Notes: a model not told the origin generated them from the letters alone. A stretch of DNA of 11,759 nt from Candidatus Nanohaloarchaea archaeon (GCA_041640035.1 JBEQBC010000019.1:1-11759), one strand, 5' to 3'; counted from the stretch's first letter, positions 1,228-9,300 are shown. A program made the numbers and translations.

Positions 1228-1235
1228 TATAAAAA
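1228..1235 (+). promoter_or_regulatory. TATA box of the rpl7ae-rps28e-rpl24e transcript
   Basis: TATAAAAA at 1228-1235. Typical archaeal spacing would put the start site near 1258-1262, just 5' of the kink-turn. Confidence 0.7.
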
Positions 1236-1265
1236 AGTTCTATTCTCTTACAGTTTGTAACACAG

Positions 1266-1291
1266 ACCTTGATGAACAGTTTGTGAAAGGT
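1266..1291 (+). promoter_or_regulatory. Kink-turn in the rpl7ae 5' UTR (L7Ae autoregulatory element) overlapping the SD
   Basis: ACCUU-GAU-GA-ACA-GUU-UGU-GA-AAGGU: 5-bp canonical stem, 3-nt bulge ending in U, tandem G-A/A-G pairs, 3-bp stem and triloop. The 3' arm is the SD-like AAGGTG (1287-1292). Confidence 0.85.
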
Positions 1292-1304
1292 GTTTTCAAC
1301 AACA

Positions 1305-1682
1305 ATGGTATATCAAAAATTCGAACCATCCGACTCGCTCGCAGAGAAAACCTACAACGCAATCGAAAAAGCACGCGACACAGGAAAAGTCGTAATCGGT
1401 ACTAACGAAGTAACCAAAAGCATCGAACGAAACGATGCTGACCTGGTCGTAATCGCAGGAGATGTCTCCCCTGAAGAAATCGTTATGCACATCCCAAGCC
1501 TAGCGGACGAAAGAGACATCAGCTACACATTCGTACCTGAAAAAGAAGAACTCGGTCTAGCAGCAGGCATCAATGTACAGTCAGCTGCGATCGCAGTAAC
1601 CGACTCAGGTAACGCAGACGACCAGATCGAAGAGATCAGCGAAAAAGCAGAAGAACTTCTGGACGCAGAAGAAGAGGAATAA
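1305..1682 (+). CDS. rpl7ae: 50S ribosomal protein L7Ae (kink-turn-binding), 125 aa
   Basis: Motifs TGKVVIGTNEVTKSIER, LVVIAGDVSPEEIVMHIP, VPEKEELGLAAGI. Start placed at ATG 1305 (MVYQKFE) rather than GTG 1290, which lies inside the SD/kink-turn. Confidence 0.97.
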   Translation: MVYQKFEPSDSLAEKTYNAIEKARDTGKVVIGTNEVTKSIERNDADLVVIAGDVSPEEIVMHIPSLADERDISYTFVPEKEELGLAAGINVQSAAIAVTDSGNADDQIEEISEKAEELLDAEEEE

Positions 1683-1744: not shown

Positions 1745-1921
1745 ATGGTAAAAGCCAAGATCATCGAAGTAATCGGAGACCAAGGTCACAGAACCGTTCG
1801 AAAGGTTCGATGCCGAGTCCTCGAAGGAAACGAAGAAGGAAAGATCCTAGTAAGAAATGTCAGAGGACCGATCCGAGAAGACGATGTAGTACACATCAAA
1901 GAAACAGAGATGGAAGGATAG
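1745..1921 (+). CDS. rps28e: 30S ribosomal protein S28e, 58 aa (not in ORF track)
   Basis: Manual translation MVKAKIIEVIGDQGHRTVRKVRCRVLEGNEEGKILVRNVRGPIREDDVVHIKETEMEG*. Contains the S28e signature RNVxGPxRxxD and sits in the conserved position after rpl7ae. Confidence 0.96.
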   Translation: MVKAKIIEVIGDQGHRTVRKVRCRVLEGNEEGKILVRNVRGPIREDDVVHIKETEMEG

Positions 1922-1934: not shown

Positions 1935-2090
1935 ATGACAAAATGCGAATACTGTGGAGAAGAACTTGCCCGCACACAGGGCAAACTCGTGGTAGAAACC
2001 AACGGCAACAAGCACTTCTACTGCTCAGGTAAATGCGAGAAGAACGCAGCCAACAACAGGAACCACGGATACTCCAGCGACGAGGAATAA
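1935..2090 (+). CDS. rpl24e: 50S ribosomal protein L24e, 51 aa (not in ORF track)
   Basis: Manual translation MTKCEYCGEELARTQGKLVVETNGNKHFYCSGKCEKNAANNRNHGYSSDEE*. CxxCG and CSxKC zinc motifs, conserved position after rps28e. Confidence 0.93.
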   Translation: MTKCEYCGEELARTQGKLVVETNGNKHFYCSGKCEKNAANNRNHGYSSDEE

Positions 2091-2174: not shown

Positions 2175-2223
2175 ATTTTACTGGCATCTATTGCCGTGTA
2201 AGGGAGGGGTTAGAAACTAGAAA

Positions 2224-3978
2224 ATGCCGCGTCAACCAATACTTTCAGTTCTCGGACATGTAGACTCCGGAAAAACCACACTACTCGACCGTATCAGAGA
2301 ATCAAGAATAGTAGACGGCGAGGAAGGTGGCATCACACAGATGATCGGAGCCACCGAAATACCCTTAGAAACCATCGAAGATGTATGCGGCGACCTTCTA
2401 CAACAACTTGACACTGACATAACCATACCAGGAATGCTTTTCATCGATACACCAGGACACGCAGCATTCTCATCACTCAGAAAACGGGGAGGCAGTATCA
2501 GCGATATCTCAATCGTAGTAGTAGATATACAGCAGGGAATACAGCCACAGACAGAAGAAGCACTGAAGATCCTGCAGGACACCAACACTCCCTTCATAAT
2601 CGCACTGAACAAGATAGACACCCTACCTGGATGGCAAAGCGAGCACAACCTCTTCACCAAGAACCTGCAGGAACAGACCGATAGAAACCAGCAGAAACTT
2701 GATGAAGAGATATACAGCTTAATGGGTGACCTACACGACCAGACAGGAGTTACCGCAGAAAGATTCGACCGTGTAGACGACTTCCAGAAAAAAGCAGCGA
2801 TCGTACCGATCAGCGCAATGACAGGAGAAGGAATACCGGAACTACTGATGACACTGACCGGATTAAGCCAGAACTACCTCTCAGACCAGCTCGAAACACA
2901 TGACGACAGCATAGGAAAAGGAACAGTACTGGAAGTAACCAAAGAAAAGGGACTGGGAACAACACTAGACATAATACATTACGACGGCACAATCAACGCC
3001 GACGATACCTTAATATACGGAACACAGGACGGAGTGAAGACAACAGATATCAGAGCACTACTCCAACCCCGACCGCTCAAAGAGATAAGAGTAGACAAGC
3101 AGTACAGCCAGGTCGACAGCATTGAACCAGCATCCGGAGTCAAGATATCCGGAAAAGACCTTGAAGGGGCAATAGCCGGAGCACCAGTAAGAACCACAGC
3201 AGAAAATGTCGAAGAAGTCAAAGAAAAAGTAAGAGAAGAACTTGACACGATCGAGTTCGAGACACAGAACGAGGGAATAATGGTTAAAGCCGACTCCCTT
3301 GGATCACTGGAAGCAATTATGCGAGAAATAGAAGACATACCGGTACAGGAAGCCAAAGTCGGACCTGTAAAGAAAAACGATGTAGTAAAAGTAGAAAATG
3401 AGGATCCTGAACACAGAGCAGTCTTCGCCTTCAATGTAGGAATCACAGACCAAGCACAGGACATGATCGAAGACAAGGGAATCGAACTTTTCCACAACGA
3501 AGTAATATACAAGATAGTAGAAGACTACGAGGAATGGAAGGAAATTCTGGAAAAGAAACAACAGGAACAGGCACTGGAAAAGATTCCAAGACCTGGCAAG
3601 ATCCAGTTGATGCCTCAACACATATTCAATCAGGCCAAACCTGCCGTAATAGGAGCCAAAGTCAAGAAAGGCGTGATTAAACCCGATACAACGCTGATGA
3701 ACCAAGAAGGAGAAAAAGTCGGAAGACTGAAGGCGATACAGGAACAGAACGAAAGCATAGATCAGGCTACCAAAGGCGACGAAATAGCAGTATCAATCAG
3801 CGGAGCCACAGTAGGAAGAACCTTCGAAGACGACGCAGTACTACTGGCAGACCTGACAGGAAAACAGTACCGACAACTACAACACCTGGACGACCACATG
3901 TCAACAGGAGAAAAACAAGTTCTGGAAGAAATAGTAGATATCAAAGACAGTAAAGACCCTCACTGGAAAATAGGATAA
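2224..3978 (+). CDS. infB: Translation initiation factor aIF5B / IF2, 584 aa
   Basis: RQPILSVLGHVDSGKTTLLD (G1), GGITQMIGA, DTPGH (G3), NKID (G4), PISAMTGEGI, KADSLGSLEA. Length is typical of an intein-free archaeal aIF5B. Confidence 0.98.
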   Translation: MPRQPILSVLGHVDSGKTTLLDRIRESRIVDGEEGGITQMIGATEIPLETIEDVCGDLLQQLDTDITIPGMLFIDTPGHAAFSSLRKRGGSISDISIVVVDIQQGIQPQTEEALKILQDTNTPFIIALNKIDTLPGWQSEHNLFTKNLQEQTDRNQQKLDEEIYSLMGDLHDQTGVTAERFDRVDDFQKKAAIVPISAMTGEGIPELLMTLTGLSQNYLSDQLETHDDSIGKGTVLEVTKEKGLGTTLDIIHYDGTINADDTLIYGTQDGVKTTDIRALLQPRPLKEIRVDKQYSQVDSIEPASGVKISGKDLEGAIAGAPVRTTAENVEEVKEKVREELDTIEFETQNEGIMVKADSLGSLEAIMREIEDIPVQEAKVGPVKKNDVVKVENEDPEHRAVFAFNVGITDQAQDMIEDKGIELFHNEVIYKIVEDYEEWKEILEKKQQEQALEKIPRPGKIQLMPQHIFNQAKPAVIGAKVKKGVIKPDTTLMNQEGEKVGRLKAIQEQNESIDQATKGDEIAVSISGATVGRTFEDDAVLLADLTGKQYRQLQHLDDHMSTGEKQVLEEIVDIKDSKDPHWKIG

Positions 3979-4778: not shown

Positions 4779-6002
4779 ATGGGATACGGCAAACTCGCGA
4801 AAGGTATGTCTGAGGAACAGGCGAAGAGAAAGCTGGAGTCAGTCATGCCTATACAGAATAATGCCAAGAAGTTTAACGGTTCGACCCCGCCAAGCGTTTT
4901 CATCGGCTCACACAACTATCCCAAGCCCAGTACCGGTGTGCTCTCACCGCAGCATCAAGGCGACTCGAAGCTGATGGACTCACCGGATAAATGGTACAGC
5001 GAAAACTACTCCATAGACAAGATCGCTTCACTCCGAACCAGCCTAGTCAACTCAAGAAAACAGACCAGAGTGAATAAGACTGATGAATTTGTGGATACAG
5101 CACGGGAAATCGCTATGGCCCGAAAACCGACACATGTCGAGGTAGAGCTGGATAAGAAGCCTTTCAACAGTGTGAATGCCGGACGGGTGAAACCGGTTTC
5201 AGCTTCCGGAGATCTGAAGCAGTTCAACCTGGGAGAGAACCCTTCAGTGAACAAGAAAGTGGAGGACGCATTCTACGACAAAGAATTTAAGGCAGAAAAC
5301 GCTGTGAAGAAACTTTACAGGAAGGGAGTAGATAACTACACGCTTCAGCAGGTTATGTCCACAGGGATGCTGGGAAAGAAGGAGAACCGGAAACTGGTTC
5401 CAACCCGGTGGAGTATTACCGCGACAGACGACACGATAGCCTCACAGATACTTGACGGAGTTAAGCAGAACCAGGAAATAGGACAGATCGAATACTACAA
5501 GAACAGCTACATCGGCAACAACTTCCACATATTCCTCATACCCGGAAAATGGGAGTACGAACTTCTCGAACTGAAACGCCCGGACTCAGCATGGAACGCG
5601 ATGCAGAACACATACATCGCGAACAACTACGAAGGATACTCAGGTCGTACAGAGTACGCAGAGGAAACAGCTGGAGCATACTACGCCACCAAACTAGGAA
5701 TCATGGAACATCTCCAGAAAAGGAACCGTCAGGCCAAAGCGGTAGTAGTTAGAGAGGTCACACCGGAGTACTGGGCGCCACTGGGAGTATGGGTGATTCG
5801 TGAAACAGTTCGTAACGCTTTCAGTAATCCTGAAGAACTTGAGAACATGGAACAGGTGAAATGGAAGCTGAACAGTAATTTCCGTTTCTTATTCAAGAGA
5901 ATAAAGAAAAGAAGTAAGATGCTGGACCGTCGCCAGTCCAGTCTTGACAGCTATCTTTCAACGAATTCTTCTTCCTCGAACTCTTCAAGGTTCAACACAT
6001 AG
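4779..6002 (+). CDS. nreA: Nre-family archaeal DNA repair protein (PCNA-interacting), 407 aa
   Basis: Motifs GSTPPSVFIGSHNYPK, RKLVPTRWSITATDD, GAYYATKLGIMEHL, REVTPEYWAPLGVWVIRETVR, plus PIP box QSSLDSYL near the C-terminus. Confidence 0.93.
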   Translation: MGYGKLAKGMSEEQAKRKLESVMPIQNNAKKFNGSTPPSVFIGSHNYPKPSTGVLSPQHQGDSKLMDSPDKWYSENYSIDKIASLRTSLVNSRKQTRVNKTDEFVDTAREIAMARKPTHVEVELDKKPFNSVNAGRVKPVSASGDLKQFNLGENPSVNKKVEDAFYDKEFKAENAVKKLYRKGVDNYTLQQVMSTGMLGKKENRKLVPTRWSITATDDTIASQILDGVKQNQEIGQIEYYKNSYIGNNFHIFLIPGKWEYELLELKRPDSAWNAMQNTYIANNYEGYSGRTEYAEETAGAYYATKLGIMEHLQKRNRQAKAVVVREVTPEYWAPLGVWVIRETVRNAFSNPEELENMEQVKWKLNSNFRFLFKRIKKRSKMLDRRQSSLDSYLSTNSSSSNSSRFNT

Positions 6003-7035: not shown

Positions 7036-8853
7036 ATGGATCTTTTCCCGTTCGATACCCCGAGAGACATGCAGACAGAGATGATAGAGGTAGTTGAAGA
7101 AGCAATAGACAACGAAGGCTCAGCGACAATCCACGCACCAACCGGACTGGGAAAGACCGCCGCAGCGCTTACACCAGCGATTGAAAAGGCTATAGAAGAG
7201 GGGAAAAAGGTTTTCTTCCTGACACCGCGTCACAGCCAGCACCAGATTGCACTGGAAACAGTGAGAAACATCAACGAGAAACACGGGAAAAAGATTACTT
7301 CAACAGACTTGATCGGTAAAAGCCACCTGTGCGAAGCTCAAAATGTGATGAAGGATGAGGACGAACCTGACTGTCCACGGCATGACGCCACCTTCGACGA
7401 TAATCATCAGTTAACAGATCAGGCGATGAAAAGAGTAAGAGAAGTAAGAAACAAGAACCTAACCGCTGAAGAAGTAAAGAAAATATGCCACAAGGTATGT
7501 GCTTACCAAGTACAGATGCACAGCCTCGAACACAGCAAATTAATAGTAGCAGACTACTTCCACATATTCCATCCAGGAGTCAGAGATGTAGTACTGGAGA
7601 AAGCAGATATAGACCTTTCAGACGCCATCATAATCGTAGATGAAGCGCACAACCTGCCTTCAAGAACCCGTAGCCTGTACTCAGCCACATTAAAGGACTC
7701 CCTGGTTAAAAACGCGGTATCAGAAGCAGGAAAGCACCAGTTCCATGATGAACAGCAGCACCTGCAGCAGTTGAAGAGAAAGTTCCAGAGACTAGTTCAG
7801 GACAAGCTTTCAAGCCAGAACCCTGAGCAGAGAGTGGAGAAATCGGATTTCACAGATATAGTAGACAGCTTCCGGGATTACGAGGACTTCATAGTCGACC
7901 TGGAAAAAGCAGGTGAAGAGATCGAGTCCAGACAGGACAAAAGATCCAAGGTACTTCAGATAGCCGAGTTCATGGACAGCTGGAACGGAAAAGACGAGGG
8001 ATTCTCACGGATACTTCAGCGAACGAACTACGGCGAGGTACATCTAAAGTACTCATGCCTGAACCCCGAAGCCACGACACGCACACCTATCAAGAAATCA
8101 TACTCAACAGTGCTGATGTCCGGAACACTTACGCCGACAGATATGTACAACGATCTTCTGGGAATCGATGAAGAGAAAAATATTACCAAGGAGTTCAAAT
8201 CGCCGTTCCCCAGTGAAAACAAGACAGAACTTGTAATACCGACACTTACCACCAAGTACAGCGAAAGAGACGAATCCATGACACAGAAATACGCATGGTA
8301 CCTGTCCAAAAGCCTGGAAGAGATTCCAGGAAACGCAGCAGCATTCTTCCCCAGCTACAGCTACATGGAAGATGTCAAAGACCAATTAAAGATGCATACA
8401 GACCGTCGAATATTCGTCGAAAAACCGCAGATGGACAAAGAGGAGAAACAGCAAACACTTGACCGGTTCAAAGACCGGAAAGATGAAGGAGACGCAGTCC
8501 TACTCGGTGTAACAGCCGGAAGCTTCGGAGAAGGAATCGACTTCCCAGGAGAGATACTCAAAGCCGTATTCATAATCGGACTACCACTACAAAGACCGGA
8601 CCTGGAAACCAAAGACCTGATCAACTTCCTAGACGAGAAATACGGGAAAGGATGGGAATACGGCTACACATACCCAGCGATCAACCGGGCTGTACAGGCA
8701 GCAGGCCGCTGCATAAGAAGCAAAACGGATGAAGGCGCCATCATCTTCATGGACAAAAGATACAACTGGAGCAACTACCGGAAAACACTTCCAAAAGACA
8801 TCAACCTGAAAGAGACCAGAGCACCATGGAAAGAACTCGGCGAGTTCTTCTGA
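7036..8853 (+). CDS. xpd: XPD/Rad3/DinG-family Fe-S DNA helicase, about 605 aa
   Basis: Q motif (FPFDTPRDMQ), Walker A APTGLGKT, four Cys (HLC, PDC, KIC, KVCAY) for a 4Fe-4S cluster, DEAH, MSGT, EGIDF, QAAGRCIRS. ATG 7036 is preferred over 7030 because TTTTTTA at 7005-7011 gives leaderless spacing. Confidence 0.95.
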   Translation: MDLFPFDTPRDMQTEMIEVVEEAIDNEGSATIHAPTGLGKTAAALTPAIEKAIEEGKKVFFLTPRHSQHQIALETVRNINEKHGKKITSTDLIGKSHLCEAQNVMKDEDEPDCPRHDATFDDNHQLTDQAMKRVREVRNKNLTAEEVKKICHKVCAYQVQMHSLEHSKLIVADYFHIFHPGVRDVVLEKADIDLSDAIIIVDEAHNLPSRTRSLYSATLKDSLVKNAVSEAGKHQFHDEQQHLQQLKRKFQRLVQDKLSSQNPEQRVEKSDFTDIVDSFRDYEDFIVDLEKAGEEIESRQDKRSKVLQIAEFMDSWNGKDEGFSRILQRTNYGEVHLKYSCLNPEATTRTPIKKSYSTVLMSGTLTPTDMYNDLLGIDEEKNITKEFKSPFPSENKTELVIPTLTTKYSERDESMTQKYAWYLSKSLEEIPGNAAAFFPSYSYMEDVKDQLKMHTDRRIFVEKPQMDKEEKQQTLDRFKDRKDEGDAVLLGVTAGSFGEGIDFPGEILKAVFIIGLPLQRPDLETKDLINFLDEKYGKGWEYGYTYPAINRAVQAAGRCIRSKTDEGAIIFMDKRYNWSNYRKTLPKDINLKETRAPWKELGEFF

Positions 8854-8910: not shown

Positions 8911-9300
8911 ATGACAACAGTGATGGCACAGGGAACATTCGATATAATACATCCCGGTCACATCCACTACCTTGAGAAATCAGCCGAGAAAGGCGATGAA
9001 CTGGTAGTAGTGATCGCCAGAGACTCAAGAATCGAAAAAAATACACATTTTGATGAAGATGAACGAAGAAAGATAGTCGACAGCATAGAACATGTCGAAA
9101 GAGCCGTGCTGGGCAGCGAGGGCGACATATATTCAACTGTAAAGGATATTGACCCTGATGTAATCACCTTGGGATATGACCAAGATCACGATGAAGAACA
9201 GGTCAAAGAGATGGCTGAGAACGCAACAGGACACAAAGTAAATGTCGAAAGAATCTCAGGTCTCAAAGACTATTCATCAAGCAATATCAGAGAGTCCTAA
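8911..9300 (+). CDS. ribL: Archaeal FAD synthase (FMN adenylyltransferase, cytidylyltransferase-like HxGH family), 129 aa
   Basis: VMAQGTFDIIHPGHIHYL, LVVVIARD, PDVITLGYDQ and C-terminal SSSNI. Substrate specificity is inferred from family resemblance. Confidence 0.85.
   Translation: MTTVMAQGTFDIIHPGHIHYLEKSAEKGDELVVVIARDSRIEKNTHFDEDERRKIVDSIEHVERAVLGSEGDIYSTVKDIDPDVITLGYDQDHDEEQVKEMAENATGHKVNVERISGLKDYSSSNIRES

Follow-up and report, generated by a model that had tools for sequence, protein, structure and literature searches.

The window analysed here is a stretch of 11,759 nucleotides (nt) from a Candidatus Nanohaloarchaea archaeon (GCA_041640035.1, JBEQBC010000019.1:1-11759), and the element in question is a kink-turn (k-turn) hairpin in the leader of its l7ae gene, which encodes the ribosomal protein L7Ae. 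The hairpin occupies positions 1266-1291, carries a Shine-Dalgarno (SD)-like sequence in its 3' strand, is conserved in l7ae leaders throughout the phylum and has no second strong counterpart in its genome. We consider it likely that this leader mediates negative translational feedback by L7Ae-induced folding of the k-turn. By analogy with published work on other archaea, we infer that L7Ae would bind the leader, that folding would depend on the protein and that translation would be repressed. A previous interpretation of this DNA (hereafter the sequence-only reading) had proposed such a loop; its observation is confirmed here, and its interpretation is supported as far as sequence can go.

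Read directly from the window, positions 1266-1291 form a standard k-turn hairpin, ACCUU/GAU/GA/ACA-GUU-UGU/GA/AAGGU, the full string being ACCUU GAU GA ACAGUUUGU GA AAGGU (components in Table 1). The sequence-only reading had described this consensus accurately in every base, as it had the SD-like AAGGUG that forms the 3' arm 12 nt ahead of the ATG at 1305. The k-turn lies between a conserved TATA box (1228-1235) and that ATG. Its -1b:-1n pair is U:A, which is neither C:G nor a pair that has been studied, and its 3b:3n pair is the Watson-Crick pair A:U; by the published rules, both would fit a k-turn that does not fold in response to ions without protein. The 9-nt sequence ACAGTTTGT occurs twice as an exact direct repeat: one copy lies at 1250-1258, and the other, which makes up the non-canonical (NC) stem-loop of the hairpin, at 1276-1284, the two being 26 nt apart. 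This repeat is restricted to the three genomes of the window's genus (leaders L001-L003; L numbers denote leaders and G numbers genomes).

Conservation was assessed in 70 genomes of the phylum, from one order and five families. An l7ae match was found in 69 of them, the remaining genome being 88% complete, and the 160 nt upstream were taken from each. A fixed procedure required GAUGA, a GA 3-45 nt downstream, at least three contiguous pairs in the canonical (C) stem and an end at most 30 nt from the start codon. The element was detected in 63 of the 69 leaders, with at least four pairs in 48 and at least five in 43, and the leaders that carry it span five families and about 30 genera. Among 13,800 shuffled leaders, 0.64% scored at three or more pairs and 0.11% at five or more, and none of the 69 reverse complements did; when only the 8 nt 5' of the bulge were shuffled, 10.6% reached three pairs and 2.6% reached five. 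All 61 distinct aligned leaders have GAUGA and, in the 3' strand, GGU without variation, and all 43 that share the window's format have the 3' GA. Between the GA pairs lie 3-22 nt, whose sequences are unrelated across lineages. The 3' strand, counted from the first base past the 3' GA, begins 10-18 nt ahead of the start codon in relatives, and the layout with the SD inside the C helix is the same in 63 of 69 leaders. Position and conservation, not the consensus match, carry the case against chance.

Two stem formats are found. RCCUU/GAU/GA...GA/RAGGU occurs in most of the window's family, and RCC/GAU/GA...GA/GGU in other families and a few genera. They differ by a matched gain of 2 nt on both strands, so that bulge and GA stay flush with the helix. 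In L008, L009, L039, L058 and L067 the helix is extended to 6-9 pairs with sequences peculiar to each lineage.

A covariance model was used to look for further copies in the own genome. The l7ae leader is its sole strong match (36.9 bits, E 5e-10), its top rank following by construction from a model built on 43 leaders that include the window's genus. The next matches (19.4 and 18.4 bits) are in coding sequence and lack the features, and lower ones (C6:22501, C1:203642 and others, by contig and position) were rejected as coding or as plain SD-spacer-ATG contexts. A genome-wide list of 2117 loose hairpins (C stem of at least four pairs, L3 = U) was left unused, its open-frame filter being so crude that it hid the l7ae site itself. 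Nop5 and fibrillarin are both encoded in this genome. At the start of nop5, the k-turn-like candidate CUUC/CUU/GA...GA/GAAG was discarded as a chance match, being present in two of three loci of the genus and in none of 27 other nop5 loci. In G000 (contig C5, about 2195-2290, minus strand) nop5 has an apparent TTG start, 15 nt past GAGGUG, which the candidate overlaps; the gene adjoins the preceding open reading frame (ORF) directly and fibrillarin comes next. By means of the covariance model and the inspection of nop5, no evidence for a wider L7Ae regulon was found in the own genome; cbf5 was not searched.

The sequence-only reading took the TATA box at 1228-1235 to place the k-turn at the 5' end of the transcript. 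In relatives this box is conserved as GG-TATAAAAA-AGTT, with the consensus GGTATAAAAAAGTT, and a TATA-like 8-mer is present in 54 of 63 leaders. Measured between their first bases, this 8-mer and the C stem are 31-34 nt apart in 36 of these 54, and 38 nt apart in the three genomes of the window's genus. In the own genome, such 8-mers, where they lie up to 60 nt from an ORF start, are most frequent at -35 to -30 (31 of 66), which is presumably the signature of leaderless genes and serves as an internal ruler. The TATA spacing is conserved and the hairpin is therefore expected at the predicted 5' end of the mRNA: box and spacing together agree with the earlier placement and predict a start at about 1258-1263. 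A start past about 1270 would require a TATA-to-start distance of more than 42 nt. In L019, L020 and L050 the TATA box lies 86-89 nt before the k-turn, and the extra 55 nt or so contain an inverted repeat; these leaders may have an additional upstream hairpin or a second promoter. A scan for bacterial-type promoters and terminators, a type of scan that is not applicable to archaea, gave nothing relevant.

SD-like pentamers occur at -20 to -4 of 166 of 1033 ORFs, versus 30 of 1033 at -60 to -44. Within the window, nine of 13 genes lack an SD-like motif within 25 nt of the start, which makes it plausible that, as had been suggested, most of the other genes are leaderless; those with the motif are l7ae, rps28e, rpl24e and aIF5B. 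The assignment to a DPANN halophile likewise fits, the genome measuring 0.98 Mb and 10 of 13 window proteins having an isoelectric point (pI) below 6 (4.1 for L7Ae).

The proposed mechanism is as follows. The first 30 nt or so of the l7ae mRNA would act as an L7Ae-responsive k-turn switch. As long as L7Ae is scarce because rRNA, box C/D and other RNAs take it up, the leader would be open or in weak alternative folds, AAGGUG would be accessible and l7ae would be translated. Surplus free L7Ae would bind and fix the k-turn, with its GAU bulge and the pairs G1274:A1286 and A1275:G1285, and the bound k-turn would close the 5-bp C helix ACCUU/AAGGU. The SD would then lie hidden within a helix clamped by the protein, 12 nt ahead of the ATG, and initiation would fall, which amounts to negative feedback. 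In folding predictions for the free leader the ensemble probability of the C stem is 0.0, that is, the hairpin is not predicted for the RNA alone; for 1240-1330 the minimum free energy comes to -13.6 kcal/mol (z = 0.29), a value that 117 of 200 shuffles equal or better.

This scheme has close precedents, which are quoted here from parts of the respective papers. In the sections used of Huang, Ashraf and Lilley (2019, RNA 25:60, PMC6298567), all six l7ae untranslated regions have a GAU bulge and none has -1b:-1n = C:G, the pair that confers ion-induced folding. In the Archaeoglobus fulgidus element 3b:3n = A:U blocks such folding; the RNA is unfolded in Mg2+ and folds with L7Ae, and Förster resonance energy transfer, a crystal structure and in-line probing place the SD within the C helix. 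The window's element resembles that switch in being a stem-loop of the l7ae leader with a GAU bulge, tandem G:A/A:G pairs, 3b:3n = A:U and a -1b:-1n pair other than C:G. Its SD likewise lies within the C helix, where binding of L7Ae would occlude it, and the free RNA would be expected to be unfolded. It differs in the -1b:-1n pair (U:A here, C:A there), in a C helix of five perfect pairs and in a hairpin predicted to stand at the very 5' end. The hosts differ as well: A. fulgidus is a thermophile, whereas the present host is a mesophilic, nano-sized halophile with an acidic proteome, in which the proposed switch is known from sequence alone. The same paper cites the yeast L30e k-turn of the RPL30 transcript, where a protein of the L7Ae family also binds its own transcript for feedback; that system is eukaryotic, additionally controls splicing, and has a different protein and RNA layout.

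The other precedent, from Sulfolobus acidocaldarius, is as the sequence-only reading had stated it. In the parts drawn on here, Daume et al. (2017, mBio 8:e00730-17, PMC5539422) report GA-dependent binding of L7Ae by electrophoretic mobility shift assay and a 1.6-fold reporter effect. They also report binding of L7Ae to leaders of several other archaea, Haloferax volcanii included, point out that l7ae has retained a leader among the many leaderless mRNAs of the archaeal domain, and describe the mechanism as conserved in most archaea. The leader studied here shares with that of S. acidocaldarius its place before l7ae, a GAU-bulge k-turn beside the SD and the logic of negative feedback. In the Sulfolobales, in contrast, the order is Kt-n, SD, Kt-b, with a single G-C on the C side; the strand order here is the reverse, namely Kt-b, NC-side loop and Kt-n fused to the SD. 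The 121-species alignment of that paper is grouped into Crenarchaeota, Thaumarchaeota, 'Other' (Korarchaeota, Nanoarchaeota) and Euryarchaeota; in the portion of the paper used, no heading or member from the Nanohaloarchaeota was found, and Nanoarchaeum equitans, the only DPANN member, is reported without a leader SD.

Among the papers listed by our literature search, none reports an l7ae k-turn leader from Nanohaloarchaeota or DPANN, and the paper that brings together this phylum and L7Ae deals with RNase P proteins. L7Ae, k-turn and eL8 are all absent from Eckert and Weinberg 2020 (PMC7247131), and Rfam has no family for the element. The phylum is thus new for the L7Ae leader device, the mechanism, logic and wide distribution of which are already in print. 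A published ribosomal-protein feedback switch would thereby extend to the Nanohaloarchaeota, very small, host-dependent, salt-in archaea, and the l7ae leader k-turn opens no new question. The 60-odd natural variants, which differ in spacer length (3-22 nt), in stem format (two kinds) and in the -1b:-1n pair (U:A, U:G or C:G), could be used to study the folding rules of k-turns at molar salt.

A number of observations weigh against the feedback reading. The consensus match is weak by itself and the bare pattern is no more frequent than expected by chance: GATGA-N(3-25)-GANNGGT has a single occurrence in the window, where 0.56 would be expected, and is present at least once in 77 of 200 shuffles. 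The motif is also common in this GA-rich genome. By a loose hairpin definition (C stem of at least five pairs, G-U allowed; GAU bulge; GA...GA 3-30 nt apart) the 0.98-Mb genome holds 77, versus 24-38 in five mononucleotide shuffles, and the window three, of which the other two (779-814 and 9047-9074) are within ORFs. The abundance of Asp and Glu in the proteome makes GAUGA a frequent sequence. At the genome-wide density about 0.002 matches are expected per 47-nt leader on one strand. Since the detector demands at least three pairs, the lower stem pairs are paired by construction, and the shuffled controls are the valid test. The 12-nt spacing from SD to ATG exceeds that of most relatives, complementarity of the SD is presumed, a search of the assembly with a 10-nt motif having located no 3' end of the 16S rRNA, and the effect measured in Sulfolobus is a modest 1.6-fold (Daume et al. 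2017, PMC5539422, in the part cited).

Covariation belongs among these points too. It had been proposed as a check across nanohaloarchaeal leaders, and the k-turn stem gave no significant signal (0.134 vs 0.127 +/- 0.009; 114 of 500 shuffles as high). Among the 43 leaders that share the window's format, standard pairs occupy the five core positions in 40, 43, 43, 43 and 43, respectively. Three of the six stem pairs never vary; one pair varies on one side only (G:U 25, A:U 15), and the innermost is U:A in 27, U:G in 15 and, as one double change, C:G in L068. The double role of the 3' strand, in the helix and as SD, is part of what limits variation.

Finally, some leaders depart from the pattern. 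No convincing k-turn was seen in the l7ae leaders L024 (G014, 7% contamination), L029 (G039) and L063 (G032, 78% complete), where the feedback device may have been lost in a lineage-specific manner. The GAU bulge is replaced by AAU in L055, with an unchanged layout, by AUU in L067, with an 8-bp stem, and by UAG in L054, a weaker candidate, all of which the fixed procedure missed. In view of these two groups of leaders, some lineages appear to vary the device or to do without it. In L024 a TATA-like box precedes the ATG by about 33 nt, as for a leaderless gene.

A more elaborate form of the switch was also considered. Many leaders of the window's family (L004, L007, L010, L013-L016, L018-L020, L031-L038, L042, L045, L047, L049-L051 and L068) carry an inner CCAAGG, CCGAGG or AGAGGC in the k-turn loop, which can pair with CCUUG, that is, the C strand and the first base of the bulge. 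Thermodynamic folding gives the competing hairpin a probability of at least 0.85 in 22 of 61 distinct leaders, its pairing holds in 80.7% of alignment cells vs at most 60.6% for slid partners, and L068 shows a joint change of inner element and stem. Covariation for this hairpin is not significant, 63 of 500 shuffles reaching the score. The window's genus has no inner decoy element, and its ensemble shows neither k-turn stem nor decoy. It is thus possible, if rather doubtful, that l7ae in much of the phylum has a two-state switch, in which the decoy holds the SD open, and that the window's genus has a derived form. The decoy pairing would then be a defined ON conformer, in which the SD stays open up to the capture of the k-turn conformer by L7Ae. 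The 9-nt duplication (1250-1258 and 1276-1284) would have replaced the decoy by a 3-bp NC stem in the window's genus and displaced its hairpin 5-6 nt further from the transcript start. The SD-like AGGUG is also predicted to pair with l7ae codons 2-4 (GCAUACC, Ala-Tyr-Gln) in many relatives, for example L010, L014, L018, L033 and L037; the corresponding codons of the window (GUAUAUC) do not permit this pairing.

Among readings other than L7Ae-mediated repression, we regard as improbable one in which L7Ae does bind a 5'-terminal k-turn and its main effect is to protect the l7ae-rps28e-rpl24e transcript from 5' decay, or to couple it to ribosome assembly. It would agree with a hairpin that begins a few nt from the predicted start in most relatives (TATA-to-stem distance of 31-34 nt in 36 of 54), with the adjacency of the three genes in all 30 loci compared, and with a repression of just 1.6-fold in Sulfolobus (cited portion of Daume et al. 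2017, PMC5539422). Stabilisation alone, on the other hand, needs no SD, whereas the 3' stem strand is always an SD-like GGU(G) 5-13 nt from the start codon; in A. fulgidus, moreover, the ribosome-binding site is reported as protected upon L7Ae binding (cited portion of Huang et al. 2019, PMC6298567).

It is less probable still that the hairpin is independent of protein and folds in the high intracellular salt of a salt-in halophile, giving constantly low or salt-dependent translation. Metal ions alone fold some k-turns (Huang et al. 2019, PMC6298567, as excerpted), the proteome is acidic, and the short-stem format of the other families has -1b:-1n = C:G and often 3b = C, both of which reportedly favour ion-induced folding. 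The window's own element, however, has 3b:3n = A:U, which reportedly blocks such folding, and its -1b:-1n = U:A is not the favourable pair. A plain SD-sequestering hairpin would need neither an invariant GAU bulge nor two GA dinucleotides, and the element stands before l7ae, whose product is the only protein known to bind this motif.

That a chance match happens to stand beside an ordinary SD is highly improbable. The loose motif is indeed common (77 in the genome, three in the window; 0.56 expected per window for the pattern) and covariation is not significant, but conservation already contradicts this explanation, with 63 of 69 leaders against 0.64% of shuffled ones and 0 of 69 reverse complements, and GAUGA is invariant whereas flanks and spacer diverge. 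Least credible of all is the presence, upstream of l7ae, of an intact or remnant box C/D small RNA gene: UGAUGA (1270-1275) resembles box C, UGA (1284-1286) resembles the end of box D (consensus as quoted in the part used of Daume et al. 2017, PMC5539422) and the genome encodes Nop5 and fibrillarin, yet 1266-1291 holds one C-like and one D-like element 9 nt apart (3-22 nt in relatives) instead of C/D and C'/D' pairs with guides of about 12 nt between them, leaves no room for a guide or a second pair, has no Rfam C/D match and lies between a TATA box and an SD and ATG.

Table 1. Features of the l7ae leader and operon (positions counted from the first nucleotide of the window)
Feature	Position	Strand	Remarks
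TATA box TATAAAAA of the l7ae promoter, preceded by GG	1228..1235	+	Conserved together with the following AGTT; putative function
First copy of direct repeat ACAGTTTGT	1250..1258	+	At or just before the predicted transcript start
Predicted transcription start interval	1258..1263	+	30-35 nt ruler applied to 1228; 3-8 nt ahead of the helix
C-helix 5' strand ACCUU, positions -5b to -1b	1266..1270	+	Paired with 1291-1287: A-U, C-G, C-G, U-A, U-A
GAU bulge, 3 nt, L1-L3	1271..1273	+	Invariant in 61/61 aligned leaders
G1b and A2b of the tandem sheared G:A pairs	1274..1275	+	Invariant in 61/61 aligned leaders
NC arm, 3-bp stem ACA/UGU closed by GUU, 3b:3n = A:U	1276..1284	+	
G2n and A1n of the tandem G:A pairs	1285..1286	+	Invariant in 43 leaders of the same type
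C-helix 3' strand AAGGU plus G1292, SD-like AAGGUG	1287..1292	+	GGU invariant, 61/61 leaders
Spacer, 12 nt, A/U-rich, AAGGUG to ATG 1305	1293..1304	+	
l7ae coding sequence, 125 aa	1305..1682	+	Pfam PF01248, E 4.5e-27
rps28e, probably co-transcribed	1745..1921	+	PF01200, E 4e-16; own AAGGU at -14
rpl24e, probably co-transcribed	1935..2090	+	PF01246, E 3.8e-08; own AGGUGA at -15

As judged from its sequence, the gene product is an ordinary, canonical L7Ae: its closest solved relatives are archaeal L7Ae (E 2.9e-36), and its segment GTNEVTKSIER aligns with GTNETTKAVER of solved L7Ae. In all 30 loci compared, l7ae, rps28e and rpl24e stand side by side in this order on one strand. The gaps between them contain no TATA-like box; aIF5B follows rpl24e behind a TATA box of its own. 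Because rps28e and rpl24e each have their own SD-like motif, and the gap between l7ae and rps28e is 62 nt, any effect of the k-turn on these two genes would be indirect.

Directly upstream of the l7ae promoter lies an ORF (978-1205) for a very acidic protein of 75 aa (pI 4.4) that ends in AEFDPEQQ and belongs to no Pfam family; a counterpart stands at the same place in 20 of 30 related loci. The ORF at 133-951 encodes 272 aa of low-complexity sequence rich in Q, N and E (pI 4.05), again without a Pfam family. A cmscan of the window against Rfam 15, up to E = 10, gave no match at 1240-1310. Weak matches elsewhere, snoZ152 at 5895-5985 (20.5 bits, E 8.7) and twister-P3 at 8455-8510 (20.1 bits, E 4.4), are far under their gathering scores, lie inside or across ORFs and are probably due to chance.

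The l7ae leaders of other lineages were compared by eye. The Nanohaloarchaeota do not appear to be an isolated case within DPANN, other lineages of which seem to show the same layout. Bulged strand, loop, GA and SD follow one another in this order in Micrarchaeota and one further archaeon (L137, L139, L148) and in Altiarchaeota (L142, L147). The Thermoplasmatota (L116-L122) have the same layout, for instance GCC/UAU/GA/UAG/GA/GGC in L116. A related and more elaborate layout was seen in Aenigmatarchaeota and other archaea (L114, L117, L126, L131, L133, L141); in the Aenigmatarchaeota type, ACCUGAAAAAUGA...GAUUAAUGGAGGU, the NC stem differs between genomes and its complementarity is kept. Heimdall and Bathy leaders (L160-L164) contain two GAUGA or AAUGA boxes.

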